Virus record (IMG/VR): IMGVR_UViG_3300029309_000297 | Location: 1-26,598 of that record | Length of the DNA: 26,598 nt | Reading direction: 5' to 3' (one strand) | Source: a virus | Taxonomy: Duplodnaviria; Caudoviricetes | Shown here: positions 304 through 26,598 of the stretch, in pieces | Position numbering within the stretch: the first letter of the stretch is position 1 | Layout of the letters: each line of letters begins with the position of its first letter | The notes under the pieces: model-generated | The model's database searches: none | Told to the model about the DNA's origin: nothing | The model's input: the letters and a program-made list of their open reading frames with translations, nothing else | Program-made: the position numbers and the translations under genes

Positions 304-320
304 TTGCTCTCTTGGATATA
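298..320 (+). promoter_or_regulatory. Candidate phage RNA polymerase late promoter
   Basis: TTGCTCTCTTGGA (304-316) resembles TTGCTGTCCTAGA (3081-3093). Both are intergenic, at positions equivalent to T7 phi6.5 and phi10. Only two copies found. Confidence 0.3.
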
Positions 321-323
321 ACT

Positions 324-512: not shown

Positions 513-513
513 T

Positions 514-744
514 ATGTGTGGATTTTCTAGACCCAAGCCACCACCACCACCTCCAGCTCCCCCAGCACCTCCAGCTACGGAAGTTAACGCTTCGTCAACT
601 CGTTTAAGAGAAAAGGCTCCAAAAGCCCCACAAACTAAAACGTCTAGCCGAGTTAGTTATTCGAGGAAACGAGGTAAACAGGCATTAAGAATACCTTTAC
701 AGGTAGGTGGAACTTCAAGTCAAAGTGGTGCAAACGTACCTTAA
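514..744 (+). CDS. Small proline-rich virion protein (T7 gp6.7/gp7.3-like)
   Basis: MCGFSRPKPPPP N-terminus, basic RGKQALRI C-terminal part, AGGAG SD, directly upstream of portal. Confidence 0.7.
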   Translation: MCGFSRPKPPPPPPAPPAPPATEVNASSTRLREKAPKAPQTKTSSRVSYSRKRGKQALRIPLQVGGTSSQSGANVP

Positions 745-756
745 TAGATAAAAAAT

Positions 757-2319
757 ATGGCAAAATTTATGACAGCTAAATCAAGATATAACACTCTTGA
801 AGCTATAAGAGACCCATTTTTAGATAGAGCACGAGATAGTGCAGAATTTACGATCCCATCTATTATGCCTCGTGAGTATCATAGTAAACACACAACATTA
901 CATACTCCATATCAAGGTATTGGTGCTAGAGGTACTAATAACCTTTCATCAAAGCTACTTCTAGCTTTACTTCCACCCAATCAACCTTTTTTTAGACTAA
1001 CACTTGACGAGTTTACTTTATCAGAACTTTCAGGTCGAGATGATATGAAAGGCGAATTTGAAAAAGCTATGGCTTCTATTGAACGAGTTGTTATGAGTGA
1101 AATGGAAGTTAACAATTTTAGAAATGCTTTATTTGAAGCTATTAAACATCTTATTATTGCAGGTAATGTTTTATTATATATTACACCTGAACTTAAAATG
1201 AAAGTTTATCATTTAGATAGATATGTAATTAAAAGAGATGGAATAGGTAATGTATTAGAAATTATTACAAAAGATATGGTTGCACCATCTTCTTTAACAG
1301 AAGAACAAAAGTTATTAATTGAAGGTGATAAAACTAAAGATAGTTATGATGATACTTGTGAAATTTATACTTGTGTTAAAAGATCAGATAATGGAAAAAA
1401 ATGGGAAGTACATCAAGAATTAAACGAAAAAATTATACCTTCATCTTTAGGAACTTATCCTATAGATAAAAACGCATTTATACCATTACGTTATACTTCT
1501 ATTGATAATGCCGATTATGGTAGAGGATTTATAGAAGAATATATTGGTGATCTTCGTAGTCTTGAAGCTTTATATAGAGCTGTTGTTGAAGGATCAGCGG
1601 CATCAAGTAAGGTTCTCTTTCTCGTGAAACCTAACGGCAGTACACGCCTTAAAACTTTATCTGAAAGTCCTAATGGAGCAATTCGTGAGGGAGATGCTAA
1701 TGATGTTACTACATTACAAGTTAATAAATTTTCTGATTTTAATGTTGCATTTCAAACAATGAGATTAATTGAAGAAAGATTACAATTTGCATTTATGTTA
1801 AATACATCTGTGCAAAGAAATAATGACAGAGTTACAGCAACAGAAATAAATTTTGTATCAAAAGAATTAGACGATAGTTTAGGTGGTCTTTATTCTTTAT
1901 TATCACAAGAATTACAACTTCCATTGATAAACAGATTAATGTTTCAAATGGAAAGAAAGAAAGCATTACCTAATTTACCTAAAGATAGTATACGTCCTAA
2001 AATTGTAACAGGATTAGAAGCGTTAGGTAGATCAAGTGATTTACAAAGATTAAATACATTTGTTAACCAACTACAACCTTTTGCAGAACAACTAATGACA
2101 TATCTAAATTTAGATGAATATGTAAAAAGAGTTGGTACTTCACTTGGAGTTGAAATGGAAGGTTTAATAAAATCTCCTGAACAAATCCAAGCTGAACAAC
2201 AAGCTATGCAAGAACAAATGATGGCACAACAAAATTCCCCTGCCGTTGTAAAAGAAGGTATGGGTATAGTCAGGGATAGTTTTAAAGACCAAAGAAACAA
2301 AAACAATAAGGAGAACTAA
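757..2319 (+). CDS. gp8: Head-tail connector (portal) protein
   Basis: 520 aa with T7 portal motifs: TPYQGIGARGTNNLSSKLLLALLPPNQPFFRL, YGRGFIEEYIGDL, RVTATEI, LGGLYSLLSQELQLPL, TGLEALGR. Confidence 0.97.
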   Translation: MAKFMTAKSRYNTLEAIRDPFLDRARDSAEFTIPSIMPREYHSKHTTLHTPYQGIGARGTNNLSSKLLLALLPPNQPFFRLTLDEFTLSELSGRDDMKGEFEKAMASIERVVMSEMEVNNFRNALFEAIKHLIIAGNVLLYITPELKMKVYHLDRYVIKRDGIGNVLEIITKDMVAPSSLTEEQKLLIEGDKTKDSYDDTCEIYTCVKRSDNGKKWEVHQELNEKIIPSSLGTYPIDKNAFIPLRYTSIDNADYGRGFIEEYIGDLRSLEALYRAVVEGSAASSKVLFLVKPNGSTRLKTLSESPNGAIREGDANDVTTLQVNKFSDFNVAFQTMRLIEERLQFAFMLNTSVQRNNDRVTATEINFVSKELDDSLGGLYSLLSQELQLPLINRLMFQMERKKALPNLPKDSIRPKIVTGLEALGRSSDLQRLNTFVNQLQPFAEQLMTYLNLDEYVKRVGTSLGVEMEGLIKSPEQIQAEQQAMQEQMMAQQNSPAVVKEGMGIVRDSFKDQRNKNNKEN

Positions 2320-3062
2320 TGGTTGAAAAAGTAGAAATACCTGCGGAAGAAGTAAAAGAAACGCAAGAGTATCAAGAAGAAATGATAAAAAAAGCTGATG
2401 ATGCAAATAATGTTGCAAATAGTGAAACAGCTCCAACTACTGAACCTGTTAAAGAAGAATTAATACTTGGTAAATTTAAAAGCCAAGAAGATTTAATTAA
2501 ATCTTATCAGGAGTTGGAAAGAAAACAATCGGAAACACCAAAAGAAGAAACTCAATTAGAAGCAGATAAACCTGTTAATTTTGATTTTTCTTCTGCTGAA
2601 AGAGAGTTTGAAGAAAATGGTGAGTTAAGTGAAAACACAATTCAATCTCTTGAAAAAGCAGGATTACCTAAATCTTACATAGACAATTATCTTGCAGGTT
2701 TAGATGCTGTTGCACAAAAGTTTGAACAAAAAGCTTTTGACACTACAGGTGGTGAAGAAAACTATAAAAGAATGACTGATTGGGTAACTGAAAATTTACC
2801 TGAAAATGAAATACAACAATTTAACGATAGCATTGGTCAAGATAATGAAACAGCATTATTTACTATAAAAGGTATGTATGCTCGTTTTCAATCTGAAACT
2901 AAAGAACCAAATTTAGCAACAGGAACTAACGCACAACAATTTGGATCAGCATATGAAAGCATTGGTCAAATGAAAGCTGATATGGCTGACCCTAGATATG
3001 CAACAGATAGTGCATTTAGAAAAATGGTTGCTGACAAAGTTTCAAGATCAAAAGTTATTTAA
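2319..3062 (+). CDS. gp9: Capsid scaffolding protein
   Basis: Acidic 247 aa between portal and capsid. Motifs KFKSQEDLIKSYQELE, GGEENY, MADPRY..D.AFR..V. Confidence 0.93.
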   Translation: MVEKVEIPAEEVKETQEYQEEMIKKADDANNVANSETAPTTEPVKEELILGKFKSQEDLIKSYQELERKQSETPKEETQLEADKPVNFDFSSAEREFEENGELSENTIQSLEKAGLPKSYIDNYLAGLDAVAQKFEQKAFDTTGGEENYKRMTDWVTENLPENEIQQFNDSIGQDNETALFTIKGMYARFQSETKEPNLATGTNAQQFGSAYESIGQMKADMADPRYATDSAFRKMVADKVSRSKVI

Positions 3063-3109
3063 CAAAATTCTGTGGATAAATTGCTGTCCTAGAATAGCAC
3101 GTAAAAGTA

Positions 3110-3140
3110 AGACTTAACCCGTTTGAGGACGGATAATTCT
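3110..3140 (+). promoter_or_regulatory. Stem-loop in capsid gene leader
   Basis: AGACTTA-AC-CCGTT-TGAG-GACGG-A-TAATTCT forms an interrupted hairpin about 60 nt upstream of the capsid start. AAGGAG SD at 3185-3190. Confidence 0.45.
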
Positions 3141-3201
3141 GAAACTGAAATTACTATGCTTTATTAGCAACAACCTATAAATACAAGGAGATATAAATAT
3201 A

Positions 3202-4140
3202 ATGTCAAATTATACTGTATCAAATATAGGTCAGAATGCTGGTTCAGGTAGTACAACTGCTTCTTTCTTGAAAATTTTCAGTGGAGAAGTTATTACTGCA
3301 TTTGAGTCAGCAAACTCGACACTAGATAAGCACTTGGTTAGAACAATTTCTAACGGAAAAAGTGCACAGTTTCCTATCGTTGGTAAAGCAACTGCTTCAT
3401 ACCACACAGCAGGAAACGAAATTACTGGTGGTTCAATAACTCACAATGAGAGAACAATCTCTATTGAGAACTTATTGATTGCTCCAGTATTTATCGCAAA
3501 AATAGACGAAGCTATGTCTCATTACGATGTGCGTAGCATTTATTCAAAAGAGCTTGGCAGAGCCCTTGCTAATCAAATGGATAAACACGTCTATCAAAAC
3601 CTACTTTTAAATAGTAGAGCAGGTGCGGCTTCGCCACAAGCGGCGGGTCAACAAATCACTGACGCTGACTTCGCAACTAATGCGGCTTCTGCGGCGGCTA
3701 CTATTTTTAGTGCGGCTGAAAAATTAGATGCGGCTGATGTGCCTGCGGAAGACAGATATTGTGCTGTCTCTCCTGCGGTATATTACAATCTAATCCAAGC
3801 GACTACTGTTATTAACAGAGATTGGGGCGGATCAGGTTCTTACTCTGATGGTAAAGTATTAAAAGTTGCAGGTATTAACATAGTACCTACAAACAACTTA
3901 CCATCTTCAAACATTAACTCTGGCGTTGGTCAAGGTTCATCTACAAATTTTGCAGGTGACTTTTCTAACACACTTGGTTGTGTTTGGCAGAAAAATGCAG
4001 TTGGAACAGTTAAATTAATGGACTTGTCTACAGAGATGGAATACCAAATCCAAAGACAAGGTACGTTAATGGTAGCAAAATATGCTATGGGTCACGCACC
4101 TCTAAATCCAATCTGTTCGATTGAAATTAAATCTGCGTAA
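3202..4140 (+). CDS. gp10: Major capsid protein
   Basis: T7 gp10 motifs: FLKIFSGEVITAF, RTISNGKSAQFP, HYDVRSIYSKELGRALA, KYAMGH. Strong SD. Confidence 0.97.
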   Translation: MSNYTVSNIGQNAGSGSTTASFLKIFSGEVITAFESANSTLDKHLVRTISNGKSAQFPIVGKATASYHTAGNEITGGSITHNERTISIENLLIAPVFIAKIDEAMSHYDVRSIYSKELGRALANQMDKHVYQNLLLNSRAGAASPQAAGQQITDADFATNAASAAATIFSAAEKLDAADVPAEDRYCAVSPAVYYNLIQATTVINRDWGGSGSYSDGKVLKVAGINIVPTNNLPSSNINSGVGQGSSTNFAGDFSNTLGCVWQKNAVGTVKLMDLSTEMEYQIQRQGTLMVAKYAMGHAPLNPICSIEIKSA

Positions 4141-4162
4141 TTTATTACGTTTGGTTTACACT

Positions 4163-4188
4163 TGGGAGGCGGCTTTGGTCGCCTCTCA
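4163..4188 (+). terminator. GC-rich hairpin after capsid gene (T-phi position)
   Basis: TGGGAGGCGGC-TTTG-GTCGCCTCTCA, an 11-bp stem including two G-U pairs. No immediate U-tract. Confidence 0.6.
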
Positions 4189-4204
4189 CTAAATAGAATT
4201 TATT

Positions 4205-4819
4205 ATGACAACTACAGTTACAACTAAATTAGAAGCAATAAATGTAATGCTTACTGCGATTGGGGAAAGCCCAGTTAACACAATTACATCTTCAACAACA
4301 ACTGATGTTTCTATTGCAATACAAATATTAGATAACGTATCAAGAGAAGTACAAAGTGTTGGGTGGCATTTTAATACTGACACTAATTATTTACTTGCTA
4401 AAAATACATCTAATCAAATTGTTTTACCTTCAAATTGTTTAAGAGTAGATAACTCAAACAAAGATGCAGATTTAGATTTAGTTGAAAGAGGTAGAAAACT
4501 TTGGGATAGAGAAAATCATACTTACACTATTACTAAAGATATTAGAGTTAATATAACTTGGTTTTTAGAATTTACAGAATTACCAGAAACGGCTAGAAGA
4601 TATATTACAATTAGAGCCGCTAGAATATTTCAAGATAGAATGTTAGCATCAGAAACTTTACACGCATTTCATCAAGTTGATGAGCTTTCAGCTTTATCTG
4701 CATTAAAAGAACACGAAGGAGATACTAGAGATCATAGTATTTTTGATAACTATAGTACATACAGAGTTATTGACAGAGATAATTTTCAACCTGCGAAAAC
4801 TACAATTAGCGATGAATAA
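4205..4819 (+). CDS. gp11: Tail tubular protein A (adaptor)
   Basis: LEAINVMLTAIGESPV, VQSVGWHFN and LPETARRYITIRAARIFQ motifs; synteny. Confidence 0.95.
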   Translation: MTTTVTTKLEAINVMLTAIGESPVNTITSSTTTDVSIAIQILDNVSREVQSVGWHFNTDTNYLLAKNTSNQIVLPSNCLRVDNSNKDADLDLVERGRKLWDRENHTYTITKDIRVNITWFLEFTELPETARRYITIRAARIFQDRMLASETLHAFHQVDELSALSALKEHEGDTRDHSIFDNYSTYRVIDRDNFQPAKTTISDE

Positions 4820-7212
4820 TGAGTGCAAGATTAATTTCAAATTCAATTCCAAATTTATTGAATGGGGTGTCCCAACAACCAGATACAGTAAAATTACCAA
4901 ATCAAGCAACCATACAAGAAAATGGTCTTTCTGATATTATTACTGGTTTAGGTAAACGACCACCTACTGAACATATTGCAAAATTAAATAGTGATACGTT
5001 AACAAATAGTAAAGTACATATTATAAATCGAGATACTGTAGAGCAATATGCAGTTTTAGTAAATAATCAATCTATAAAAGTTTATGATTTAGCAGGTAAT
5101 AATAAAAGTGTAGTCACTCCTGATGGGTTAAGTTATTTAACTTCTACAAATCCACAAGAAGATTTTAATTTAGTAACTGTTGCTGATTTTACTTTTATTG
5201 TTAATAAAACTAAAACAGTTGCAAAATCTGGTACTCCATCTGCATCTCGACCTGACGAAGCAATATTTTATGTAAAAAATGGTCAGTATAGAACTACTTA
5301 TGAAATTATTATTGATGGTTCAAGTGTTGCTAATTTTCAAACTTTAGATAATTCTAATGCTAGTAATGCGTCATCAATTACTACAGATAATATAGCTACT
5401 GAGTTAACAAACGATTTAAATTCTAATTTATCAGGATACACTATAATTAGAGATGGCTCTATTATATATGTAAAGAAAAATTCAGGAACTTTTACTGCTG
5501 AAGTATCAGATGGACTTGGTGGTGATGGTTTAATTTTAGTGAAGGATAAAACTAACTCGTTTGCTGATTTACCATATAAAGGTTATATTGGATTTGTTGT
5601 TGAGATTGTAGGAGATGGTGGTACTGAATTTGATAACTACTTCGTAAAATGGGACGGAACTGCGTGGGTTGAAACTGTAAAAGATGGTTTAGATAATTCA
5701 TTTGATACATCAACAATGCCACATTTGTTGATAAGAACAGCAGACGGAAATTTTAGGTTTTGCAAAGCAGACGGTTCATCTTACACGGTTAGTGGTACTT
5801 CATTTACGGAACCAGAATTTGCATCTCGAACAGTAGGGGACGAGACTACAAGTCCCGACCCTACGTTCGTTGGTAGAAAAATTAATGATATATTCTTTTA
5901 TAGAAATAGACTTGGTTTTTTATCTGATGAAAACGTCATCTTTTCTAAAGCAGGAAAGTTTTTTACTTTTTGGGCAACTACAGTAACAACTGCTGTAGAT
6001 GATGATATGATTGATTTAGCTGTTAGTCATAACAAAGTATCTATTTTAAAATATGCTGTACCATTTAATGAACAACTTGTTTTATTTTCAGATCAATCAC
6101 AGTTTACTCTTGATGCTGAAGAAGTGTTGTCAGCTAAAACAGTTTCAATTAATCAAACTACTGAATACGAGATTGATGATGGTGTAAAACCAATAGGTCT
6201 TGGACAAAATATTTATTTTGGAATATCTAGAGGTAGTTTTGCAGGTGTTAGAGAATACTATGTAAATGCTGATACAGAAATTAAAGATGCGTTAGATACA
6301 ACTGTAAATTTACCAAGATACATTTCAGGTGGACTTAATGGATTAAAAGGTTCATCTTCTGAAAATACATTATTTGCTTTTGCTTCAGGAGAAAGAAACT
6401 CTTTATTTGTTTATAAATATTATTTTGATGCAGGATCAAAAGCTTTACAAAGGGCTTGGTCTAAATATAAATTTGTAGACACAGATGTTTTATTAGATGG
6501 TGATTGTATACAAAATTATTTGTATATGGTTATTAAAAGAGCTGATGGTACATATTTAGAAAAATTAAATTTAAAAACAAATGAAGTAGATACAGGATTA
6601 AGTTTTCCAATTTTATTAGATCGTAAAACGAGTTTGACAGGTAGTTATGATAGTGCAACAAATAAAACTACATTTACACTTCCATATCAAGAAACAAATT
6701 CTATGGACGTTGTTTTAGGTGGGTCTTGGTCATCTACAGAAAAAGGAAGAAACATTCCTATTTCTAGTACAACAAACACAACTATAGTTGTAAATGATGA
6801 TTATTCTGCTAATCCTGTTATTGTTGGAAGAAAATATACATTTAAATATCAGTTTTCAACTTTTTTTGTAAGAGAACAAAAAACAACTGGTAATGCTACT
6901 TCTGTAAACACAGGTAGATTACAACTAAAGAAAATGAGTATTATATTTGGAGACACAGGTTTCTTTGAAGTTAATTTAACACCACTAGCTAGAACAGCAT
7001 CTGTATACAAATTTACAGGTCAAATATTAGGATCAAGTACATTTACTATTGGGCAACCTAATTTAGAAAGTGGTACATTTAAATTTCCTATTCAATGTAA
7101 AAATACAGATACAGTTATATTCATATCTTCCGATAGTTACTTACCTTGTAACTTTCTTTCGGCAGAGTGGGAAGGAGTATTCTCTGTTCTTTCTCAACGA
7201 ATAATAACTTAA
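4819..7212 (+). CDS. gp12: Tail tubular protein B (nozzle)
   Basis: 797 aa. SIPNLLNGVSQQPD, GLGKRPP, MPHLL, FYRNRLGFLSDENVIFS, QRAWSKY, GRLQL and C-terminal AEWEG motifs. Confidence 0.96.
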   Translation: MSARLISNSIPNLLNGVSQQPDTVKLPNQATIQENGLSDIITGLGKRPPTEHIAKLNSDTLTNSKVHIINRDTVEQYAVLVNNQSIKVYDLAGNNKSVVTPDGLSYLTSTNPQEDFNLVTVADFTFIVNKTKTVAKSGTPSASRPDEAIFYVKNGQYRTTYEIIIDGSSVANFQTLDNSNASNASSITTDNIATELTNDLNSNLSGYTIIRDGSIIYVKKNSGTFTAEVSDGLGGDGLILVKDKTNSFADLPYKGYIGFVVEIVGDGGTEFDNYFVKWDGTAWVETVKDGLDNSFDTSTMPHLLIRTADGNFRFCKADGSSYTVSGTSFTEPEFASRTVGDETTSPDPTFVGRKINDIFFYRNRLGFLSDENVIFSKAGKFFTFWATTVTTAVDDDMIDLAVSHNKVSILKYAVPFNEQLVLFSDQSQFTLDAEEVLSAKTVSINQTTEYEIDDGVKPIGLGQNIYFGISRGSFAGVREYYVNADTEIKDALDTTVNLPRYISGGLNGLKGSSSENTLFAFASGERNSLFVYKYYFDAGSKALQRAWSKYKFVDTDVLLDGDCIQNYLYMVIKRADGTYLEKLNLKTNEVDTGLSFPILLDRKTSLTGSYDSATNKTTFTLPYQETNSMDVVLGGSWSSTEKGRNIPISSTTNTTIVVNDDYSANPVIVGRKYTFKYQFSTFFVREQKTTGNATSVNTGRLQLKKMSIIFGDTGFFEVNLTPLARTASVYKFTGQILGSSTFTIGQPNLESGTFKFPIQCKNTDTVIFISSDSYLPCNFLSAEWEGVFSVLSQRIIT

Positions 7213-7673: not shown

Positions 7674-7675
7674 TT

Positions 7676-14384: not shown

Positions 14385-14387
14385 TAT

Positions 14388-16202: not shown

Positions 16203-16224
16203 CGCATAACAAGGAGAAAATAAT

Positions 16225-17550: not shown

Positions 17551-17575
17551 TAATCATAAATTCAAGGAGAGTTAA

Positions 17576-19051
17576 ATGACAAAAGCTAGAGACATAGCTG
17601 ATTTTAAATTTGAAAATATAGTTGATACTGGAACTACTGGTACAAAAGTTGCAACAGGAACAACAGCTCAACGTGGCTCTACGACTGGTCAATGGAGATT
17701 TAATACAACCACTGGATTTTTTGAGGGCAGAGGTGCTAGTGATTTTTTAACATTAGAACCTACACCCACAGTCACAAGTGTAGACGTGACTGAAGTTGAA
17801 AGTGCTTCTGGTGGTAATCAAACTTTTGTTATTACTGGTACTAATTTTACTGCTGGTGGAGTGATAGCTTTTGTAGGGTCTTCGGCTCAATTTAATGCTT
17901 CAACAACAACTTTTAATAATTCAACACAAGTCACAGCAGTTGCACCTAAAGTAAGTTTTTTAAATGCACAAGAACCATATAAAATTAAATTTTCTTCTGC
18001 TAGTGGAGTAGCAGGAGTTTCAGCGACAGGATTAATTAATGTAGACAACGCACCTAATTGGTCTACGTCAGCAGGAACTTTAGCTACAATCTTTGACAAC
18101 GCAACAGGAACACACGCTACTTTATCAGCTTCCGACCCAGAGGGAGAAACAGTCACGTATTCTGAAACTGGTGGTACAAATATTACTGGTGCAGGATTAT
18201 CGTTGAACAGTTCGACAGGTGTTATTTCTGGCGACCCAACAGATGTTTCAAATGCAACGACAGTTTCGTTTACTAGTAGAGCAACAGCAGGGTCAAAAAA
18301 TACTGACAGAAGTTTCAATATTATCATCAATCCTACTTTAGATGGCACAACTTCAGGCAGAGCAAACACTTCAGCTTCAGCAATCAAAACTTTAACAGGC
18401 ACAACAACAAATGGCTACTACTACATTCAAGCTAGTGGTATGGCAAACCCAGTTAGACTTTGGTGTGATATGAATACTGATGGTGGTGGCTATATGCGTT
18501 TCTGGTGGTTTAATACTTTAGAACAAGATGGTGGGTTAAGTGCTTCTTGGAATACAGGTACAAAATTTGGAACATCAGATATTTCTACAATTACACACAC
18601 TCAAAATTATGGATATGGAAGAATACCAAGTGGAGTGACACCAACTAAATTAATGGTTAAAGGCACTTCGGCACAACAAACTTCTAGCAATCCAGTAAGT
18701 TATATTATCTTTACTTTTAATTCTGGCAATTCAACATCTAATGCTATGTTAGGAAGTATGCAAAATGGAACTACATATTCGTATTCGCCAAGAGATAATT
18801 TTCCACCTACATCAATTAGTTTAGATACTAACCCATACAATATTCAAAGTAGTGGAATGTGTGACCACTGGGGATATGGAACGAATGTTTATTCTGGTGG
18901 AGAAAGTACCTTTGACTTAAATGACGACACAGGAACAAGTAATACGTCTATTGGTGCAGGTAATGATGGTGGAAATCAGGGTACGGACTTTGTGACTGGT
19001 GGTGGCTATCGTTATAGAACAGGTGATTATTTGGCTCTTTATTGGAAATAA
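17576..19051 (+). CDS. Virion appendage protein with Ig-like (IPT/TIG, cadherin-like) domains and C-terminal fibrinogen-like domain
   Basis: AAGGAG SD. PTVTSV..FVITGTNF (IPT), ASDPEGETVTYS..GLSLNSSTGVISG (Ig/cadherin-like), NGYYYI..LWCDMNTDGGG (fibrinogen-related motif). Confidence 0.7.
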   Translation: MTKARDIADFKFENIVDTGTTGTKVATGTTAQRGSTTGQWRFNTTTGFFEGRGASDFLTLEPTPTVTSVDVTEVESASGGNQTFVITGTNFTAGGVIAFVGSSAQFNASTTTFNNSTQVTAVAPKVSFLNAQEPYKIKFSSASGVAGVSATGLINVDNAPNWSTSAGTLATIFDNATGTHATLSASDPEGETVTYSETGGTNITGAGLSLNSSTGVISGDPTDVSNATTVSFTSRATAGSKNTDRSFNIIINPTLDGTTSGRANTSASAIKTLTGTTTNGYYYIQASGMANPVRLWCDMNTDGGGYMRFWWFNTLEQDGGLSASWNTGTKFGTSDISTITHTQNYGYGRIPSGVTPTKLMVKGTSAQQTSSNPVSYIIFTFNSGNSTSNAMLGSMQNGTTYSYSPRDNFPPTSISLDTNPYNIQSSGMCDHWGYGTNVYSGGESTFDLNDDTGTSNTSIGAGNDGGNQGTDFVTGGGYRYRTGDYLALYWK

Positions 19052-19053
19052 TA

Positions 19054-19296
19054 ATGCCTAGAAAAAAAATTACTGCCAAAGAGTTTGTTGAACAAGCAAC
19101 AGGAGTAAGACTTTCTGCACACGAAAGAATTTGTGCTGAGAGAATGAAACACATTCAAGAAAGTATTAAAGAATTAAGTAAAGAAGTAAAATCGTTAAGA
19201 ACTGAAGTCTCAAAAGGTAAAGGTGCAATTTCTGTACTGGTGTTTTTAGGTACTTTAATAGTTGGATTAGTAGGATTCTTTAAGTGGAATGCCTAA
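19054..19296 (+). CDS. Small coiled-coil protein with C-terminal transmembrane helix (holin/XhlA-like candidate)
   Basis: ATG at 19054. RLSAHERICAER motif, heptad repeat, hydrophobic AISVLVFLGTLIVGLVGFF. Confidence 0.65.
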   Translation: MPRKKITAKEFVEQATGVRLSAHERICAERMKHIQESIKELSKEVKSLRTEVSKGKGAISVLVFLGTLIVGLVGFFKWNA

Positions 19297-19432
19297 AAAG
19301 AAATCTAGTTTATTAAATAAAGAACCTCACGAAACCAAAAGCAAATTTAAAAAGACTTCTATATCAACGAACAAAAGTAAAATTAAATGGTCTTCTATGA
19401 ACAAACACAAAAGAAGACAACATAAAAAATGA
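19289..19432 (+). CDS. Small basic protein (47 aa), not in ORF track
   Basis: MPKKKSSLLNKEPHETKSKFKKTSISTNKSKIKWSSMNKHKRRQHKK. Fills the gap exactly, with ATGA overlap to the next gene. Confidence 0.7.
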   Translation: MPKKKSSLLNKEPHETKSKFKKTSISTNKSKIKWSSMNKHKRRQHKK

Positions 19433-19647
19433 TAAAAGTAACTTTATTTATGATTATGTGTTCAGCATCAGCTAATGAATGTATGCCTCCTTATCGACTT
19501 GCATTATTAAATAATCATTATGATTGTATGCAAAGAGGATATTCAGAGAGTGCTAAAAAAATAGAAGAAATAGGTCAAGAACAAATAAATGAACATTTAA
19601 TTTATATAAAGTTTATTTGTAAACCAACAAAAATAACGGAGAGTTAA
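19429..19647 (+). CDS. Hypothetical protein with hydrophobic N-terminus and four Cys
   Basis: MIMCS..ECMPP..YDC..GY..KFIC; tightly packed in the operon. Confidence 0.7.
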   Translation: MIKVTLFMIMCSASANECMPPYRLALLNNHYDCMQRGYSESAKKIEEIGQEQINEHLIYIKFICKPTKITES

Positions 19648-19648
19648 A

Positions 19649-19792
19649 ATGACAAAAAGACGTGGACTATATGCAAATATAAATGCAAGGAAAAAAGCAG
19701 GTACTTCAAGACCAAAATCTAAAAGTACAATTAGCAAAAAAGCATATGCTAATATGAAAGCAGGTTTTCCTAAAAAGAAAAAATATGCGTAG
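19649..19792 (+). CDS. Small basic protein (47 aa), not in ORF track
   Basis: GGAG SD. MTKRRGLYANINARKKAGTSRPKSKSTISKKAYANMKAGFPKKKKYA. Confidence 0.75.
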   Translation: MTKRRGLYANINARKKAGTSRPKSKSTISKKAYANMKAGFPKKKKYA

Positions 19793-20018
19793 TAGAAACT
19801 ACAAAGCAGAATATCGAAAATATCAAAGTTCTACAAAGTCAAAATTAGATAGAGCATCTAGAAATAGAGCAAGAAGAAGATTAGCTCGTTTAGGTGCTGT
19901 ATCAAAAGGTGACGGTCGAGACATAGATCATAGAAATAAAAATCCTAGAGATAACTCTATGTCAAATTTAAGAGTAACATCAAAAAAATTAAACAGAGGA
20001 AGATACAGAGTATCATAA
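19785..20018 (+). CDS. Small HNH-motif endonuclease-like protein
   Basis: GDGRDIDH..N..N..SNLRV..NR minimal HNH/HNN core; Arg-rich. Confidence 0.75.
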   Translation: MRSRNYKAEYRKYQSSTKSKLDRASRNRARRRLARLGAVSKGDGRDIDHRNKNPRDNSMSNLRVTSKKLNRGRYRVS

Positions 20019-20019
20019 T

Positions 20020-20397
20020 ATGTGGTTCAATTTATTATCAATGGGCATCAAGACTGGTGCAAAATTATATTCTGATAAACAAAAAACAAAAGAAGCTTTA
20101 TCAGAAGCTAGACTACTTCACGCCGAGAAGATGAAACGAGGGGACATCGAGTACCAAGGAAAAGTATTTGAGAACCAGAAGGGAGACTGGAAGGACGAGT
20201 TCGTACTTTTGACGGTTAGCTCCCCTCTGTTTCTTTTAGCATATTCTGTGTTTGCAGAAGATGAAGAAATACAAAATAAAATAGATTTATATTTTGAAAA
20301 GCTACAACAGATGCCGTGGTGGCTAGTTTCATTGTGGATTAGTATAGTTGCGGCAATTTATGGAATAAAAGCTACAGATTTAGTAAAACGAAAATAG
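20020..20397 (+). CDS. Membrane protein, holin candidate (3TM-holin-like)
   Basis: WKDEF motif followed by two hydrophobic helices, ending AIYGIK. Confidence 0.6.
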   Translation: MWFNLLSMGIKTGAKLYSDKQKTKEALSEARLLHAEKMKRGDIEYQGKVFENQKGDWKDEFVLLTVSSPLFLLAYSVFAEDEEIQNKIDLYFEKLQQMPWWLVSLWISIVAAIYGIKATDLVKRK

Positions 20398-20405
20398 GAG
20401 ATAAT

Positions 20406-20504
20406 ATGAAAGAGTTTAAAAGTAATATGCAACACTTATGGTTATTTCATAGAAAAACTGTATTAGTTGTAGGGGTGCTATTTGTTATTGCAGTAGTATT
20501 ATAA
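20406..20504 (+). CDS. 32-aa single-pass membrane peptide, not in ORF track
   Basis: AGGAG SD. MKEFKSNMQHLWLFHRKTVLVVGVLFVIAVVL. Confidence 0.6.
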   Translation: MKEFKSNMQHLWLFHRKTVLVVGVLFVIAVVL

Positions 20505-20506
20505 TA

Positions 20507-20662
20507 ATGAAAACAATTATTAATTGGATTAAAAAATTTTGGGAAAAACAAGAAAAAGCAATAGAAGATTGTATGCCTATAGCTTTTCCTGAACCCGAAG
20601 AAATAAACAGAGATAACCTTTGTCCTACTTGTCATAAAGACTTTGGTTGTCAATGTGAGTAG
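20507..20662 (+). CDS. 51-aa protein with C-terminal CxxC..CxC motif, not in ORF track
   Basis: MKTIINWIKKFWEKQ...LCPTCHKDFGCQCE. Sits between neighbours with 2-nt gaps. Confidence 0.6.
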   Translation: MKTIINWIKKFWEKQEKAIEDCMPIAFPEPEEINRDNLCPTCHKDFGCQCE

Positions 20663-20664
20663 TT

Positions 20665-21033
20665 ATGAAAGTATCTGAAAACACATCAGTAGCTATGCCA
20701 ATCAAAAATATGATTGGTATTATTATAGGAGTAGCTATGGGTATTTTTGCATACACAGAAATTACTGCAAGACTTACTTCACTTGAAACATCAAGAGAAT
20801 TAATGACTGCTGATTTACTCAAAAAGTCAGAGCAGACAACCGTAGATAAAGAGCAATTTATCCTTATTGAAGATTTATATAAAACTACTGATGAACATAC
20901 AGAGCAATTAAATAAAAATGTTCACAATCAAGTAATGCTACAACATTTAGAAAAACAATTAGAAAAAGCATTAAGTGATTTAGAAAAATTAAAAGATAAA
21001 GTTAGGGAGAACGGAAATGGAAATAGTCATTAG
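20665..21033 (+). CDS. Membrane-anchored coiled-coil protein
   Basis: N-terminal TM (MIGIIIGVAMGIFAY) followed by heptad repeats. Confidence 0.75.
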   Translation: MKVSENTSVAMPIKNMIGIIIGVAMGIFAYTEITARLTSLETSRELMTADLLKKSEQTTVDKEQFILIEDLYKTTDEHTEQLNKNVHNQVMLQHLEKQLEKALSDLEKLKDKVRENGNGNSH

Positions 21034-21238
21034 TCTATTAATGTTTCTGGGAGAACCTGCGGTATTAAAAGAACATTTATATATACAAGATCAACGAATG
21101 GCAACTTGCCTTAAAATGAAAAGAATTAGCGAAAGATCGTCAAATGCTAAATACCAATGTGCCAAAGTAAAAGCTACAGTTATTGTAGATGAATATTCTG
21201 GCGAGAAAAAAATTACTAGCATAACAAGTATGGACTAA
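21017..21238 (+). CDS. Hypothetical protein
   Basis: GGGAG SD. Hydrophobic N-terminus, CLKMKR..YQC Cys pair; overlaps the upstream gene. Confidence 0.7.
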   Translation: MEIVISLLMFLGEPAVLKEHLYIQDQRMATCLKMKRISERSSNAKYQCAKVKATVIVDEYSGEKKITSITSMD

Positions 21239-21474
21239 TGAGAAAAGAACACAAAAGCCCTACTGGTGGATTAACTGCAAAAGGTAGAGCATACTTTAAA
21301 GCCAAAGGTCATAATCTAAAAGCTCCCGTTACAGGAAAAGTAAAACGAGGATCAAAGGCGGCAAAAAGAAGAAAGAGTTTTTGTGCTCGTATGTCTGGAG
21401 TTAAAGGTGCTATGAAAGATAGCAAAGGAAGACCAACAAGAAAAGCATTAGCTTTAAGAAAATGGAGATGTTAA
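21238..21474 (+). CDS. Small basic protein (DUF6321-like)
   Basis: GGLTAKGR..NLKAPV..RRKSFCARM..ALRKWRC pattern. Confidence 0.75.
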   Translation: MRKEHKSPTGGLTAKGRAYFKAKGHNLKAPVTGKVKRGSKAAKRRKSFCARMSGVKGAMKDSKGRPTRKALALRKWRC

Positions 21475-21477
21475 ATT

Positions 21478-21642
21478 ATGAGTAAAAAACTAAAAGCATT
21501 AAGTAAACAACAAATGAACACACTTAAAAAACATTCTGTTCATCATTCAACAAAACATATGAATTTTATGAAAGATCAGATGCGAAAAGGAAAATCATTC
21601 AAAGTCGCACACAGAATGGCTCAATCAAAAGTTGGAACGTAA
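21478..21642 (+). CDS. Small basic His/Met-rich protein (54 aa), not in ORF track
   Basis: GGAG SD. MSKKLKALSKQQMNTLKKHSVHHSTKHMNFMKDQMRKGKSFKVAHRMAQSKVGT. Confidence 0.7.
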   Translation: MSKKLKALSKQQMNTLKKHSVHHSTKHMNFMKDQMRKGKSFKVAHRMAQSKVGT

Positions 21643-21643
21643 T

Positions 21644-21883
21644 ATGAGTAAAGAAACAGAAAAAAAATTATCAGAACTGCACAGCAAACTAACTGATAAA
21701 CTATTAGAAAAAATTAGAGACCCAGAAGTAAAAGCTTCTGATCTTAATGTTGCTAGGCAGTTTTTAAAGGATAATAACATAGATTGTGTACCTACCGAGA
21801 ACAACTCTATGGCGAAACTTGCAGAGGAGCTCCCATTTAAGCTCTCTGATGTAATACAAGGTAAAGGAGACATAAAGCAATAA
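21644..21883 (+). CDS. terS: Terminase small subunit (T7 gp18-like)
   Basis: LSELH..L..I..ASDLNVARQFLKDNNI..L..LPF motif; directly upstream of terL. Confidence 0.88.
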   Translation: MSKETEKKLSELHSKLTDKLLEKIRDPEVKASDLNVARQFLKDNNIDCVPTENNSMAKLAEELPFKLSDVIQGKGDIKQ

Positions 21884-21925
21884 ACGCTTATATACACGCC
21901 TCTAGTGGCGTTTAAAGGGTATATT

Positions 21926-23551
21926 ATGAAAGAGATAACCCAAGATTTCAGGAACTTCCTGTATATCGCTTGGAAACATTTAAATCTTCCAAGCCCAACA
22001 AAAGTGCAATTTGATATTGCCGACTATTTACAGAATGCACCAAGACGAGCAGTTATACAAGCCTTTCGAGGTGTAGGTAAGTCTTGGATATGTAGTGCCT
22101 TTGTATGTTGGAACTTGTTGAAAAACCCCGACTTAAAATTTCTCGTGGTATCAGCAAGTAAAACAAGAGCAGATGATTTCAGTACATTTACAAAAAGACT
22201 AATAACTGAAATGGACATACTAAAGCACTTAACACCAAGATCAGACCAAAGGGGAAGTAATGTATCCTTTGATGTTGCCCCTGCAAAAGCGGCACACTCT
22301 CCATCTGTTAAGTCCGTAGGAATCACAGGACAACTAACAGGTAGTAGAGCAGATTATATTATTTCTGATGACTGCGAAAGTTTAAACAATAGTTTAACTC
22401 AAAGTATGAGAGATAAACTTACAGATAACGTTAAAGAGTTTGAAGCTGTGTTATCTCCTAGTGGTAAGATTATATTTTTAGGTACACCACAATCAGATAT
22501 GTCAGTTTATAATGACTTACCGACTAGAGGATATGAAACTAGAATATGGACAGCTAGAAATCCTGAAGCAACAAAAGCATACAGATATGAAAACAAACTA
22601 GCACCTTTTATTAAAGAAGGTAAGTTTGGAGAACTAGAACCTATTGATCCCGAAAGGTTTGATGATTTAGAGCTCAAAGAAAGAGAAGCAAGTTATGGAC
22701 GAAGTGGCTTTGCCCTTCAGTTTATGCTTGATACTACTTTATCAGATAAAGAAAGATACCCACTTAAATTAAGTGATTTAGTAGTAATGGACATTAATAA
22801 TGATATAGCTCCCGTCAAGTTAGCTTGGGCGGGTAGTCCCGAATACATTTGTGAAGATTTGCCAAGCGTAGGTTTTACAGGAGATAAGTATTATAGACCT
22901 ATGTTTAAATCCGAAGACTTTGGAAATTACAAAGGTTCTGTAATGTCTATTGATCCTGCGGGTCGTGGTCAAGATGAATTGGCGATTGCCATAGTCAAAC
23001 AGCTAGGTGGTAATCTATTTGTGCAGAACTGCACGGGGTTAAGTGGTGGGTATACAGAAAGCAATCTAACAAAGATTGCAACACTAGCTAGAGACACTAA
23101 AGTTAATATGATTATCGTTGAGAGTAACTTTGGTGATGGTATGTTTACACAACTATTAAAACCTGTAGTCCAAAGGTATTATCCTGTGACTATAGAAGAA
23201 GTTAATCATACTAAACAAAAGGAACTTCGTATCATTGATACGTTAGAACCTGTGATGAACCAACATAGGTTGGTTGTTAGTCCGCAGTTAATACGTCAAG
23301 ATTTTGACACAACTGACCCTAACTACCAATTATTCTATCAGTTAACTAGGATAACAAAAGATAGAGGATCATTAAGAAATGATGACCGACTTGATGCTCT
23401 TGCAATTGCTGTTGCCTATTGGGTAGAACAAATGTCTATAGACAGCGAGAACCAACTTCAAGATCATAGAGAACAATTATTAAAGCAAGACTTGGAGAAG
23501 TTTCTAGAAGGAACTTTTGGACATAGCCAAACAAAAGACCGATGGATTTAA
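21926..23551 (+). CDS. terL: Terminase large subunit (T7 gp19-like)
   Basis: Walker A IQAFRGVGKS, GITGQLTGSRAD, Walker B IISDDCE, LGTPQ, nuclease motifs IDPAGRGQDE / ESNFGDGM / DDRLDALA. ATG 21926 is preferred over GTG 21905 because of the AAGGGT SD. Confidence 0.97.
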   Translation: MKEITQDFRNFLYIAWKHLNLPSPTKVQFDIADYLQNAPRRAVIQAFRGVGKSWICSAFVCWNLLKNPDLKFLVVSASKTRADDFSTFTKRLITEMDILKHLTPRSDQRGSNVSFDVAPAKAAHSPSVKSVGITGQLTGSRADYIISDDCESLNNSLTQSMRDKLTDNVKEFEAVLSPSGKIIFLGTPQSDMSVYNDLPTRGYETRIWTARNPEATKAYRYENKLAPFIKEGKFGELEPIDPERFDDLELKEREASYGRSGFALQFMLDTTLSDKERYPLKLSDLVVMDINNDIAPVKLAWAGSPEYICEDLPSVGFTGDKYYRPMFKSEDFGNYKGSVMSIDPAGRGQDELAIAIVKQLGGNLFVQNCTGLSGGYTESNLTKIATLARDTKVNMIIVESNFGDGMFTQLLKPVVQRYYPVTIEEVNHTKQKELRIIDTLEPVMNQHRLVVSPQLIRQDFDTTDPNYQLFYQLTRITKDRGSLRNDDRLDALAIAVAYWVEQMSIDSENQLQDHREQLLKQDLEKFLEGTFGHSQTKDRWI

Positions 23552-23592
23552 AGACAAGCACGGGCTAATACAACTACTACGATTACTCTGAT

Positions 23593-23645
23593 TAGTATTA
23601 ACTATAGTATTATATCTATAGTATTAGTTGTAGTATTATATCTAT
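23593..23645. repeat. Short tandem array: 4 x TAGTATTA (2 x TAGTATTATATCTAT)
   Basis: Copies at 23593, 23605, 23619 and 23631. Confidence 0.8.
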
Positions 23646-23706
23646 TAGATAATATCATAGTGTTATCTCATTAGGTACACGCTGGACAACTAGATTTAGT
23701 AGTGCA

Positions 23707-23722
23707 GGTAGTCCTGACTACC
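23707..23722. repeat. Perfect 7-2-7 palindrome GGTAGTC-CT-GACTACC
   Basis: Directly visible inverted repeat in non-coding DNA. Confidence 0.8.
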
Positions 23723-23851
23723 ACATTTTGCATAGATTAAGCTAAAAGCTAGTATTGGCGTAGGTGGTTAACGACCGAAACAACTCGGGTGTTGCACAAT
23801 TACAACATCTTGTCAACTCATTTTGTTTTGTTGAAAAAATCTGAAAGGGTA

Positions 23852-24026
23852 TCTTGTTATCGTTCACTATCGAAAAACCCCCGTACACGTCTAGGTTGCA
23901 TTTTAAAAAGACAAAATTAAAAAGCTACAAACCACAACAAACAATAATAAGGATATACAATCCGTTTTATCTAAAATTATAACGGCTTGTTTTTTTTGTG
24001 GGTGGTTTCTTTAAGTGACGGGGTGT
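23852..24026. repeat. Predicted direct terminal repeat (~175 bp), collapsed to one copy in the assembly
   Basis: Preceded by AAAAATCTGA-N7, begins with TCT, has CCCCC 26 nt in, and is followed immediately by ATCTGTT. This is the same geometry as the T7 160-bp terminal repeat junction. Confidence 0.6.
23957..23997 (+). terminator. Possible intrinsic terminator
   Basis: ACAA-T-CCGTT...AACGG-C-TTGT imperfect stem followed by a T run. Confidence 0.4.
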
Positions 24027-24039
24027 ATCTGTTTTTTTT
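24026..24039 (+). terminator. Class II (concatemer-junction type) pause/termination signal for a T7-like RNA polymerase
   Basis: TATCTGTT running into a T tract, at the right edge of the predicted terminal repeat. Confidence 0.55.
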
Positions 24040-24090
24040 GTTTGTGAAAAATCTTAAACCAGAACGGACAGAAAAATTTTAATTAACTCG

Positions 24091-24133
24091 TTATGACTTG
24101 TTATAAACTTTGGACATCTACAACAAGTCATAA
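24091..24133 (-). other. Long hairpin 3' of the minus-strand operon (terminator, stabiliser or RNase III-type site)
   Basis: Perfect 12-bp inverted repeat TTATGACTTGTT / AACAAGTCATAA. It extends to 17 bp with G-U pairs only on the minus strand. Confidence 0.65.
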
Positions 24134-24145
24134 GATTAACAGGTG

Positions 24146-24385
24146 TTAACCTGTGGTTATGTTTGGTTTTGTTTCCGTTGTTTCCGTTGAACTTTTAACG
24201 GGTTGATTTGAGTTTTTATCTACGTCTTGATGGTAGCCCTCATCAACAAACGGGAACGATAATTGAACGGGTTGTTTTGACTTCTTTTTCAATGGTCTAA
24301 CTCGTTCTGTTATTGTGTAGGTTATTGTCTTTTTACGGACATAACCTTTTTCTTTTAAAGTTAATGGTTTTGACTTGTTATCCAT
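24146..24385 (-). CDS. Hypothetical protein (79 aa)
   Basis: ATG 24385 with GGGGT SD, overlapping the upstream stop. Basic N-terminal half, QLSF motif, Thr-rich tail. Confidence 0.6.
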   Translation of the reverse strand: MDNKSKPLTLKEKGYVRKKTITYTITERVRPLKKKSKQPVQLSFPFVDEGYHQDVDKNSNQPVKSSTETTETKPNITTG

Positions 24386-26294
24386 TATTGACCCCACTTT
24401 CTGTTTTTGGTTGTTGTTGATTTAAAGAACTCGGGATATTTGCCCTCGTTCTAATTGCCCGAACACGTCTAAATCTTAACGGCTCGGATAGTTTTAAAGT
24501 AGGTACATTAAAAGAAATATTATTAAATCTTTTTTTGTATCTAACGTTAAAACTTTCCACTTTACGAAACAACTTATTGTTATTTGTGTTTCTAAAATGA
24601 AACTGATTTAACACGGGATAATCACCTCTGTTTTTACTTACCCATAAAATAAACTTTTTATAGTTTAAATCGGAATAGCTTAACGAGTTTGAACGTGCAT
24701 AAGTAGTTAACCCGTGAACAAATTCTAAATATCTATACATTGTTGTCGCTGAAATATTGCCCTTGAATAATCTAAATTCTAAAGTTTTTTCATTAGAGTT
24801 ATTTAATATTTCGTATCTGTCGGTAATTGCCCTTGTATAGAACTTTAATTTTTTACCAAAAACAACACGGGCATAACTCGTATCATTTTGTAAATCACGT
24901 CCCGAAATCTCACAAAGATATTTAAAATTTGGCTCATAATTTAAAAACGTACCAATCAAACCTTGCTGAAATGGTGTTAATAAATGTTTTGGAATATGAA
25001 CGTGAACACCCGTTTTTTTGTCTTTATAACTATACAAATAATCTTTTACGTTTTTTTCAAACTTAAACCAATAATCAGTTTGTTTTGCATAATCTAAAGT
25101 CATTGGGACAATATTTAATTCCAATCCGTTTTGACCTAACGAGCCGTCACTTTTACAAATAGCCGTCCCCGATAAAATATCTTCCTCTAATCTTTTAACA
25201 ATATTTCGGGGACATCTATTAGATTTATTTACCTCTAATTCTACACCTAAATAAAGATTTTTGTTTTTATCTTTTTCATACGGCATTTGTGCAAAAGGTA
25301 ATTTTTCAACTACCTTGAAACTATACTCACGTAATCGGTTATTGTTTGTTGTTAGATTTACACTCGGAAATTGTTCTTTTGTTTTAAAATCTAAATTAAA
25401 AACAATAGTCTTTTTAGAACTCATATACTCGGCTTTTATATATCGTTCTTGTAAATCTTTACTATCATAACCCAAATTAGAATTATAATTATTCCGTGCA
25501 TAGTAATTTGAAATAAATAACTCGTTATGATTATGTAAATAAAACGAATTAAATGCTAAATTATATTTTGACATAACCGAAACTAGATTATCAATCGGTA
25601 CATCTCGATAAAAAGAACTCACGTTTCCAAACCTATAAAACAAACCCGTTATAGAACATTGGAATATTTTATTTTTTTCAATTAAATCCCAATCTAAATA
25701 ATCAAGTAAGTTTTGAAATGCTTTTATTGTGTTTTGATAAACTCGTTTAAACACAGAATTATAACGGCATTTTTTGGCTACATAATTACCGAAATTTTGA
25801 ATTAATGCCGTTTGATTATCCACTCTATTATACAAACCAAAAAAATCTAAATGTAGTCTATGGTTTATTGTTTGAGTTTCCAAACCGAAATAATCTCGTA
25901 AGTGTATCCATATATTTGATTTAACACTAGAGTTTAAAACGTTATCTGTTCTTAATTCATAATAAATATTTTTAATAAAACTATTGATTAAAATAGTATT
26001 TATATATTTATCTAAATTAATAAAAAATAAACTCGTTTCATCATTAAAAGTTTGTTTTGTTAAATCTGTATTTTCTAAATTAACATTTTTGATTTTATCA
26101 TAATCCATATTGTTAAATGAAATTTGATTTAATATCTGTTCCGTTGTTGATAAATCAAACGAGTTAAATTGTTTCCAAATTGAAACTTGTTTTTTCTCTC
26201 GAAATTTTTTTAACGTGTTAAATATATTTGAACTCGTTAACAAGTTATCAAATTGTTTGAATTGATATACTTTTCTTTTTTTTCTATTTGGCAT
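24378..26294 (-). CDS. Putative amidoligase (COOH-NH2 ligase / Amidoligase_2-type domain) with long unknown N-terminal region
   Basis: YLGVELEV, KSDGSL..GLEL..P, TGVHVH, RY..LN and TLEFRLFKG, in the order diagnostic of the glutamine-synthetase-fold COOH-NH2 ligases. ATG 26294 (638 aa) is preferred because of the GGGGT SD. Confidence 0.8.
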   Translation of the reverse strand: MPNRKKRKVYQFKQFDNLLTSSNIFNTLKKFREKKQVSIWKQFNSFDLSTTEQILNQISFNNMDYDKIKNVNLENTDLTKQTFNDETSLFFINLDKYINTILINSFIKNIYYELRTDNVLNSSVKSNIWIHLRDYFGLETQTINHRLHLDFFGLYNRVDNQTALIQNFGNYVAKKCRYNSVFKRVYQNTIKAFQNLLDYLDWDLIEKNKIFQCSITGLFYRFGNVSSFYRDVPIDNLVSVMSKYNLAFNSFYLHNHNELFISNYYARNNYNSNLGYDSKDLQERYIKAEYMSSKKTIVFNLDFKTKEQFPSVNLTTNNNRLREYSFKVVEKLPFAQMPYEKDKNKNLYLGVELEVNKSNRCPRNIVKRLEEDILSGTAICKSDGSLGQNGLELNIVPMTLDYAKQTDYWFKFEKNVKDYLYSYKDKKTGVHVHIPKHLLTPFQQGLIGTFLNYEPNFKYLCEISGRDLQNDTSYARVVFGKKLKFYTRAITDRYEILNNSNEKTLEFRLFKGNISATTMYRYLEFVHGLTTYARSNSLSYSDLNYKKFILWVSKNRGDYPVLNQFHFRNTNNNKLFRKVESFNVRYKKRFNNISFNVPTLKLSEPLRFRRVRAIRTRANIPSSLNQQQPKTESGVNNG

Positions 26295-26598
26295 TGTTGA
26301 CCCCTTTTTTTGTTGTTGTTGTATTTCCGTATGGTTTTGTGTCATCAAAATAATTTTGAGTTTTTGTTTCATCAAAATATAACTCGCAATCTTTTTCATC
26401 TGTTAAATCATAACCCGAATATGTTGCTAAAATATAATCAGCAATTAACTCGGGACGTTCATCACAAAGTAATTTAATTTCGTCTTTATCCATTGTTTGA
26501 ACTAACCCGTTTAAGTCGCTTAAATCTTTTGGTGTTGTTGTATCCGAATTATGCTCGTTCCAAAACTCACTATCATAAACGGGTTTTTGTTGAACTGA
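26284..26598 (-). CDS. C-terminal part of a gene truncated by the window edge (acidic tail)
   Basis: The frame of the listed 69-aa ORF stays open to base 26598 (SVQQKPVYDSEFWNEHNSDTTTPKDLSDLNGLVQT-MDKDEIK...). Its stop overlaps the amidoligase start. Confidence 0.7.
   Translation of the reverse strand, partial: SVQQKPVYDSEFWNEHNSDTTTPKDLSDLNGLVQTMDKDEIKLLCDERPELIADYILATYSGYDLTDEKDCELYFDETKTQNYFDDTKPYGNTTTTKKGVNNAK

Follow-up and report, generated by a model that had tools for sequence, protein, structure and literature searches.

In T7, gp16 brings in ~850 bp of the genome and the host polymerase then pulls the genome into the cell, in the account given in PMC8954989. Among T7-like phages, the closest named relatives of the phage considered here are the temperate pelagiphages of the HTVC019P type (Autographiviridae), which resemble it in gene order, in a block of MarR-like gene, integrase and RNA polymerase (RNAP), and in the attachment (att) cores in tRNA-Cys and tRNA-Leu. 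The kinship holds at clade level, where T7-like gene order, RNAP, integrase and an att core in a SAR11 tRNA were all found. The DNA in question is a stretch of 26,598 nucleotides (the window), positions 1 to 26,598 of the IMG/VR record IMGVR_UViG_3300029309_000297, a linear fragment with a completeness estimate of 64%; its subject of interest is an array of the short word AACYCGTT. The window comprises the late half of an uncultured T7-like phage, with T7-like late genes from portal to terminase at positions 1-23,551, and its presumed left end. Terminase identity to the named phages is 58-59%, and RNAP identity, measured in a 95% relative, is ~31%; the clade is therefore uncultured. It differs from the HTVC019P type by a leftward operon 3' of terminase, made up of an amidotransferase-like gene, an amidoligase-like gene (the ligase) and a small open reading frame (ORF), and the repeats of cultured HTVC019P-type members are one-strand (GGGCGA, HTVC120P). 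Beyond this operon, relatives carry an optional MarR-like gene, the integrase and RNAP, all rightward. Related loci used for comparison bear labels beginning with L or G.

The word is a selected, asymmetric DNA signal of 7-8 bp whose density is greatest over the first 6 kb of the inferred left end. In the window its sites are arranged as follows.

24085..26585, both strands (8 on +, 5 on -): 13 exact AACYCGTT sites forming an array truncated by the window end
24085..24092, + strand: first site, in intergenic DNA, sharing bases with the start of the inverted repeat 24091-24133
24197..24306, both strands: sites 24197(-), 24266(-) and 24299(+), in the small last ORF of the leftward operon
24682..26238, both strands: seven ligase-gene sites, 24682(-), 25519(+), 25643(+), 25740(+), 26030(+), 26158(-) and 26231(+)
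25007, + strand: relaxed site CACCCGTT, in the ligase gene
26504..26585, both strands: sites 26504(+) and 26578(-), in the amidotransferase gene
597..6634, both strands: gradient tail, 597(+), 1082(-), 5554(+) and 6627(-); 3116(+) belongs to a hairpin before the capsid gene

The initial annotation, made from the letters of the window, had located these 13 sites and five outside them (597, 1082, 3116, 5554, 6627), all with exact coordinates. The whole window thus holds 18 sites; in 100 dinucleotide shuffles the count averaged 1.12 and never exceeded 4. Beyond position 23,900 there are 13, where order-1, -2 and -3 Markov models of the same region predict 0.36, 0.99 and 3.46 (p = 2e-16, 5e-11 and 7e-5, respectively). 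Seven sites fall in a 673-codon minus-strand ORF, in all three frames and both orientations, compared with an average of 0.59 and never more than 4 in 2,000 synonymous-codon shuffles, and enrichment over codon shuffles holds in the ligase, amidotransferase and integrase genes and in the first kb of RNAP. The enrichment therefore persists against both kinds of shuffle and, since it survives codon shuffling in three frames and both orientations, the signal lies in the DNA rather than the protein, as had been proposed. Confinement of the word to the genome end, also proposed, was too strong a claim. Positions 1-7,000 hold 5 sites against 0.3-0.65 expected and positions 7,001-23,900 none against 0.6-0.9, so the word forms a gradient whose density falls toward mid-genome, and not a bounded island. 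The site at 3116 is part of a conserved pre-capsid hairpin, of which phages with other words carry a one-base variant. A conserved structured leader precedes the capsid gene at window positions 3065-3200; its stem changes across distant relatives and it has no match in Rfam.

Could the array be a mere by-product, the left end avoiding many short words so that the few allowed G+C words pile up unbound? The leading region does have a composition of its own, with CpG at 1.5 vs 0.54 and GpC at 0.57 vs 1.17, and with losses of short words: within 2.6 kb, CTGC and CTCC occur 0 times, AGGA once and CTTC twice. Words with CCG, CCC and CGA are gained at synonymous positions in 8/8 relatives, most weakly in L101 and L122. 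Such an origin is nevertheless very improbable, as the excess of 13 sites over 3.5 remains under the order-3 model of the region itself, most single-base variants of the word are not enriched, the general class AA-N4-TT is barely raised (1,758 vs 1,515) and the words differ between lineages. More broadly, GpC, CAG, CTTC, CTGC, CTCC, AGGA and GATC are strongly lost from window positions 24000-26598, CCGG and GCGC are missing from both counted parts of the window and GANTC nearly so. This loss of short words is reminiscent, by analogy, of the purged first-step DNA of T5, and leaves the array unexplained.

The form of the word was resolved in six class-A relatives (33.8 kb), that is, phages with the word of the window, where AACTCGTT occurs 58 times against 2.0 expected and AACCCGTT 27 times against 1.3. 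The consensus is HACYCGTT, asymmetric, with position 1 tolerating T or C and the central YC as strict as the arms. The initial annotation had read the word as a quasi-palindrome bound by a dimer, and this did not hold up: in the six relatives the perfect palindromes AACTAGTT and AACGCGTT are absent (0 vs 3.3 and 0 vs 1.1 expected), and the words AACTCGCA and GACCGCA of sister lineages are non-palindromic. A third palindrome, AACCGGTT (0 vs 1.3), is uninformative because CCGG is missing from the whole window. A symmetric dimer is thus an unlikely reader, the site being asymmetric and true palindromes not enriched. Of the near-matches that had been listed with the array, AACCCGTG is indeed enriched in the same relatives (7 vs 0.5) and AACGTGTT is not (reverse complement 4 vs 2.6). 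The sites split between the strands as 8:5, 15:11, 6:9, 5:5, 6:6 and 8:5 across six phages and, relative to transcription, as 36 sense vs 41 antisense in four genes of class A; in class B the split is 9 vs 17 overall and 4 vs 14 in the RNAP gene. No helical phasing was found in 135 gaps, nor any extended consensus around the sites, and an expectation-maximisation motif search drifted to A/T-tract patterns and was discarded.

A second word, ACTCGG, stands at window positions 23783, 24429, 25362, 25427 and 26448 and also in L088 and L117. Unlike the main word it is strand-biased (4:0 in the window beyond 23,900, 7:0 in L088), and CGAGCC is biased likewise in L014 and L018 (0:6).

In near-identical relatives the array is ~6 kb long, spanning the ligase, amidotransferase and integrase genes and the start of RNAP, and thins toward mid-genome. 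L001/L088 has 26/27 sites in the 5.8 kb after the repeat described below, into the first third of the RNAP gene, and none in the 3.2 kb before it. Density reaches one peak right past the repeat and another in the intergenic DNA ahead of the integrase, and G001 displays the same gradient with a different word. Positions of sites partly turn over between orthologues. Synonymous positions within sites tend to be less variable among near-identical phages (1/18 in one comparison), though without significance.

In sister lineages the same region is filled with other words: ACCGCTW (class B), AACTCGCA (C), ACTCGCT/CCTSAG (D), YCGTTAAG (E) and GACCGCA (F). The initial annotation had suggested looking in related phages for the same or a different palindrome confined to the left end; different words do occupy that end. 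Every class is richest in the word assigned to it; in 33.9 kb of class A, A sites number 119, B sites 0 and D sites 1. Classes A, B, D and E each form one clade on the RNAP tree with support of 99-100 (32 rows, 27 distinct). On the integrase tree they are intermixed, requiring 6 changes, vs 3, the minimum, on the RNAP tree of the same 26 loci (L325, L326, L330 and L307, with a short or weakly labelled leading region, were left out). The word follows the RNAP tree and not the integrase, att allele or MarR gene. Nine reference T7-like or marine phages, including cultured Pelagibacter phages, have no comparable two-strand array, the separation of class B from them in a two-strand 7-mer test being modest (log10 p -4.4, vs -3.4 for the best of the reference phages), and 16 distant terminase loci have mostly one-strand repeats. 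One-strand GGGCGA direct repeats lie in the early region of L201 (HTVC120P; 1702-2421) and L087 (36425-39320), 9/9 on the + strand in each and none elsewhere. HTVC120P and S42-C7 are the reference phages with these repeats, which are distinct in kind from the two-strand array.

The match between classes and clades on the RNAP tree raises the possibility that the phage RNAP itself reads the word, as a promoter fragment or a pause signal. Some differences between classes fall at the base of the specificity loop (2/6 three-state class-diagnostic columns and 4/30 fixed A/B differences). However, the loop positions aligned to T7 746, 748 and 758 are K, K and Y in A, B and E alike, and the sites occur in both orientations without an extended consensus. 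They do not have the form of T7-type promoters, which would be a long one-strand consensus, mostly intergenic and co-varying with the specificity loop, and this explanation is extremely improbable.

Alternatively, the word may be read by a host protein. The likely host of the clade is SAR11, because att cores of relatives match those of Pelagibacter phages. The locus L303 contains a prophage junction; over 42 nt, its tRNA-Cys half on the host side agrees exactly with the HTVC121P att core. For L104, the tRNA-Leu half shares 97.7% identity over 43 nt with that of HTVC105P. According to 10.1101/410191, HTVC121P and HTVC105P both integrate in Pelagibacter HTCC7211. No tRNA att core was found in the window's own lineage, whose host is inferred from its kin, and scans of species genomes for a prophage or att gave no matching locus. 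A SAR11 reader could act as a Chi-like check on an AddAB-type nuclease or as a chromosome organiser, the words differing with the SAR11 clade infected. Phages can over-represent host Chi near replication or packaging landmarks, as reported in PMC3784561. A gradient from a free DNA end would suit an end-loading nuclease, and no phage reader has been found. The class B word contains AGCGG, the Chi sequence of Bacillus subtilis. Yet Chi acts in one orientation, and no such bias or strand polarity exists in the six phages. Furthermore, identical att alleles are common to different word classes: one tRNA-Cys allele to A, B and D and one tRNA-Leu allele to B, D and E (the "Cys" rows L106, L325 and L326, pattern false positives, were ignored). 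Cultured Pelagibacter phages lack such arrays as well, and we regard a host reader as unlikely.

A third explanation is silencing as by stoperators, in which a phage repressor would bind the many sites and shut the early region, either while the phage is in a carrier state or at a late stage of infection, the word defining an immunity group. Here the asymmetric, lineage-specific sites, 20-30 per genome as in cluster A mycobacteriophages, fit well; they cluster between the leftward operon and the integrase, and the clade integrates (L303). Orientation with transcription is lacking, though, in class A (class B being skewed in RNAP), the sites are of 7-8 bp and not 13, and many lie in coding DNA. 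A cognate immunity repressor present in every member was not found either: the sole regulator-like gene, MarR, travels with att and is absent from 12/35 loci, including those with the densest arrays; a repressor from some undescribed family is possible. Of these 35 loci, 22 have both MarR-like gene and att, 12 neither and 1 is discordant, loci with short flanks (L330, L303, L307) having been dropped. Class-A phages without att and MarR carry 3.5-4.4 sites/kb and those with both 1.7-2.2, the former representing only two independent lineages. The silencing explanation is, on balance, somewhat unlikely. L088, L102, L119, L122, L323, L324, L331 and L342 have lost the MarR-like gene jointly with the tRNA att core but kept an intact integrase, and the MarR-like protein may be an excision factor instead of a repressor.

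Finally, an enzyme of Type IIG, Type III or BREX-like kind might target the word, which would serve as a pre-marked "self" tag or a sponge. Sharp asymmetric targets of 6-8 bp are typical of such enzymes, and several of the words contain CGAG or TGAG. However, no window protein matches a methyltransferase family and none is evident among the listed ORFs of G001, G002 and L340, which were partly scanned. As motifs, the words are absent from the text supplements of two marine methylome papers (PMC8919816, PMC9516812). Moreover, target sites in the first-injected DNA of T5-like phages raise restriction, as described in PMC10644984, so selection should remove them. Methylation or decoy sites are thus improbable.

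The meaning of the gradient depends on the position of the genome end, and the relevant features of the window are these.

21905..23551, + strand: terminase large subunit, last late gene, landmark for the genome end
23820..24027, no strand: inferred direct terminal repeat, ~200 bp, with a conserved block, a homology break and a pause-like signal at its right edge
24026..24033, + strand: TATCTGTT with a T run, a match to the class II pause signal of the T7 concatemer junction
24146..24397, - strand: small conserved ORF, last of the leftward operon, with a QLSFPF stretch
24378..26291 (ORF to 26399), - strand: amidoligase-like protein, 637 amino acids (aa) from the likely start, with a C-terminal glutamine-synthetase fold and an N-terminal helical domain
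26284..26598, - strand: 3' part of a class II glutamine-amidotransferase-like gene, full in L001/L088 (GATase_4 E=0.004, below the curated cut-off)

The block 23,820-23,907 is retained even in relatives with terminase identity of 74-79%, and homology with relatives extends to 24,039-24,043 and then breaks. The T7 terminal repeat is 160 bp long, and the T7 genome carries TATCTGTT at bases 160-167. This element is described as a class II signal near the T7 concatemer junction in 10.1101/2021.01.11.426313. The pause-like signal lies 455-478 nt past the terminase stop in 5/5 close relatives and 0/4 distant ones, and 11/41 close terminase loci terminate 465-607 nt past that stop. From these sequence features we infer a terminal repeat of ~200 bp ending near 24,027, which would be 58 bp ahead of the first array site, in keeping with the initial placement of the array just past a predicted repeat. 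AT-rich direct and inverted repeats lie directly past the terminase stop (window 23566-23645), at a position conserved in G001, and are a possible packaging or origin signal. The junction of terminase and operon is spanned by independent contigs, and X16 RNA contigs cover parts of both sides, without strand or level information.

What, then, reads the word? As it follows the phage core genome and not the att allele or integrase, a phage protein is the simplest reader, and the gradient from the inferred end, strongest in phages without an att core, implicates the free linear genome. Our tentative explanation, quite possible though short of probable, is that the word is the binding site of a phage-encoded protein that coats the first-entering DNA and so helps to import or shield it. 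In L340 no plausible rightward gene precedes position 9043; the first such gene lies 3.6-3.8 kb into the leading end. With only the leftward operon in this stretch, a longer transcription-independent entry step would be needed, without T7-style pulling. A protein that binds at intervals of 120-250 bp, whichever way the site faces, could serve as a ratchet on the entering DNA and as its shield. It might be delivered by the virion (gp15 or gp16 family) or be made first from the leftward operon, the ligase N-terminal domain being the candidate. A more specific version is a sequence-specific entry system evolved in this podovirus clade: a protein brought by the virion would recognise a private code of 7-8 bp spread over the genes of the first 6 kb, and would draw in and shield DNA out of reach of transcriptional pulling, code and reader having been switched together at least 5 times. 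It is possible but doubtful. Coating by a phage protein presupposes that the genome end lies where it is placed here, that the left end enters first as in T7, that the reader is of phage origin and that it has a role in entry. Of the four candidates advanced initially, such a phage coat remains the leading candidate; a host factor is less favoured, as is a MarR repressor, which the densest arrays lack, and methylation or decoy sites found no support.

As readers, the MarR-like protein was rejected, being dispensable and absent where arrays are densest, and the variable segments of gp15 and gp16 were rejected as determinants since they are not class-diagnostic. Several observations weigh against coating by a phage protein. 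Among the small ORFs the dispensable MarR-like gene was the sole match to a DNA-binding family; classes B and D have the variable gp16 segment 500-560 in common; and the ligase N-terminal domain, although modelled with confidence (residues 1-200; pLDDT 78, pTM 0.80), has no Foldseek match in the PDB and none in the Atlas. The genome end is a prediction from sequence, and mapped contigs showed no molecule ends. Purifying selection on the sites is only suggestive: 2/48 synonymous positions in sites are variable, vs 243/1,864 (p 0.085 and 0.16 by base class). Classes B, D and E contain the A word too, at 0.8-1.6/kb, some phages combine two or three words, and the class labels were set after the counts had been seen, many rows being near-duplicates. 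L040 and L048 have the leftward operon yet weak arrays, and L068 a leftward leading gene without a two-strand array. Tracking of the RNAP tree may reflect mere descent, or host clades following the phage tree, and the peaks after the repeat and before the integrase also fit gene control. The left end may also harbour a rightward promoter in antisense; a sigma-70 scan (22 vs 30 expected) was uninformative, and an 11-mer search for a repeated phage promoter found none.

The amidoligase-like gene has a weak Pfam match in 5/8 relatives, and its glutamine-synthetase fold supports the assignment. The small ORF at 24146-24397 has no family or Atlas match. Its QLSFPF stretch has a counterpart, QMELPL, in L122 (ORF 9787-9969), both of which we take to resemble beta-clamp-binding motifs; this suggests an early clamp-binding protein. 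Within the densest site cluster of L088 lies a conserved leftward micro-ORF (7185-7367), whose start is FxHPSFYKKL-like and whose tail is of low complexity. Very basic late proteins of 45-80 aa, including DUF6321, are encoded near terminase (L340 665-1165 and 2611-3015; window 21238-21642) in some classes and are absent in G001; they are candidate DNA-condensing internal proteins. An Rfam scan of the window found no family.

Podovirus DNA import without transcription and the shielding of entering DNA are open questions, to which a private graded code offers a direct handle, and the six natural word variants are ready-made specificity swaps for a reader pull-down. If instead one of the rival explanations is true, the array would point to a repressor system of a new kind, or to the first signal of Chi-like or nucleoid type in SAR11, the ocean's most abundant bacteria.

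Literature searches, covering few subscription papers and no bioRxiv supplements, found no description of such an array, and the known systems resemble it only in part. The stoperators of cluster A mycobacteriophages (L5, Bxb1) are likewise asymmetric sites in the tens per genome, with a lineage-specific consensus and a temperate background (PMC6550527); here, however, the word is shorter and often in coding DNA, follows no orientation rule in class A, is graded from one end and has no cognate repressor found. Chi in lambdoid phages is similarly a short asymmetric word over-represented near a genome landmark (PMC3784561), whereas this array has no strand polarity and its word follows phage lineage, differing among phages with the same att allele. 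The first-step-transfer DNA of T5/BF23 and the leading end of T7 also place special sequence selection on the first-entering DNA, and short-word depletion is found here too. T5, though, purges target sites, according to PMC10644984, whereas a specific word is gained here, and T7 gp16 binds DNA without sequence preference in the account of PMC8954989. All three genes of the phiEco32-type set (amidoligase, glutamine amidotransferase and gamma-glutamylcyclotransferase), for which a superinfection-exclusion role is cited in 10.1101/2024.05.16.594516, occur in the clade; the amidoligase differs by an extra 240-aa N-terminal domain of unmatched fold, and the set is not known to be linked to any DNA word. 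On the tests run, the array fits no known family and constitutes, its mechanism unproven, a lineage-specific second code graded from the probable entry end of the genome.

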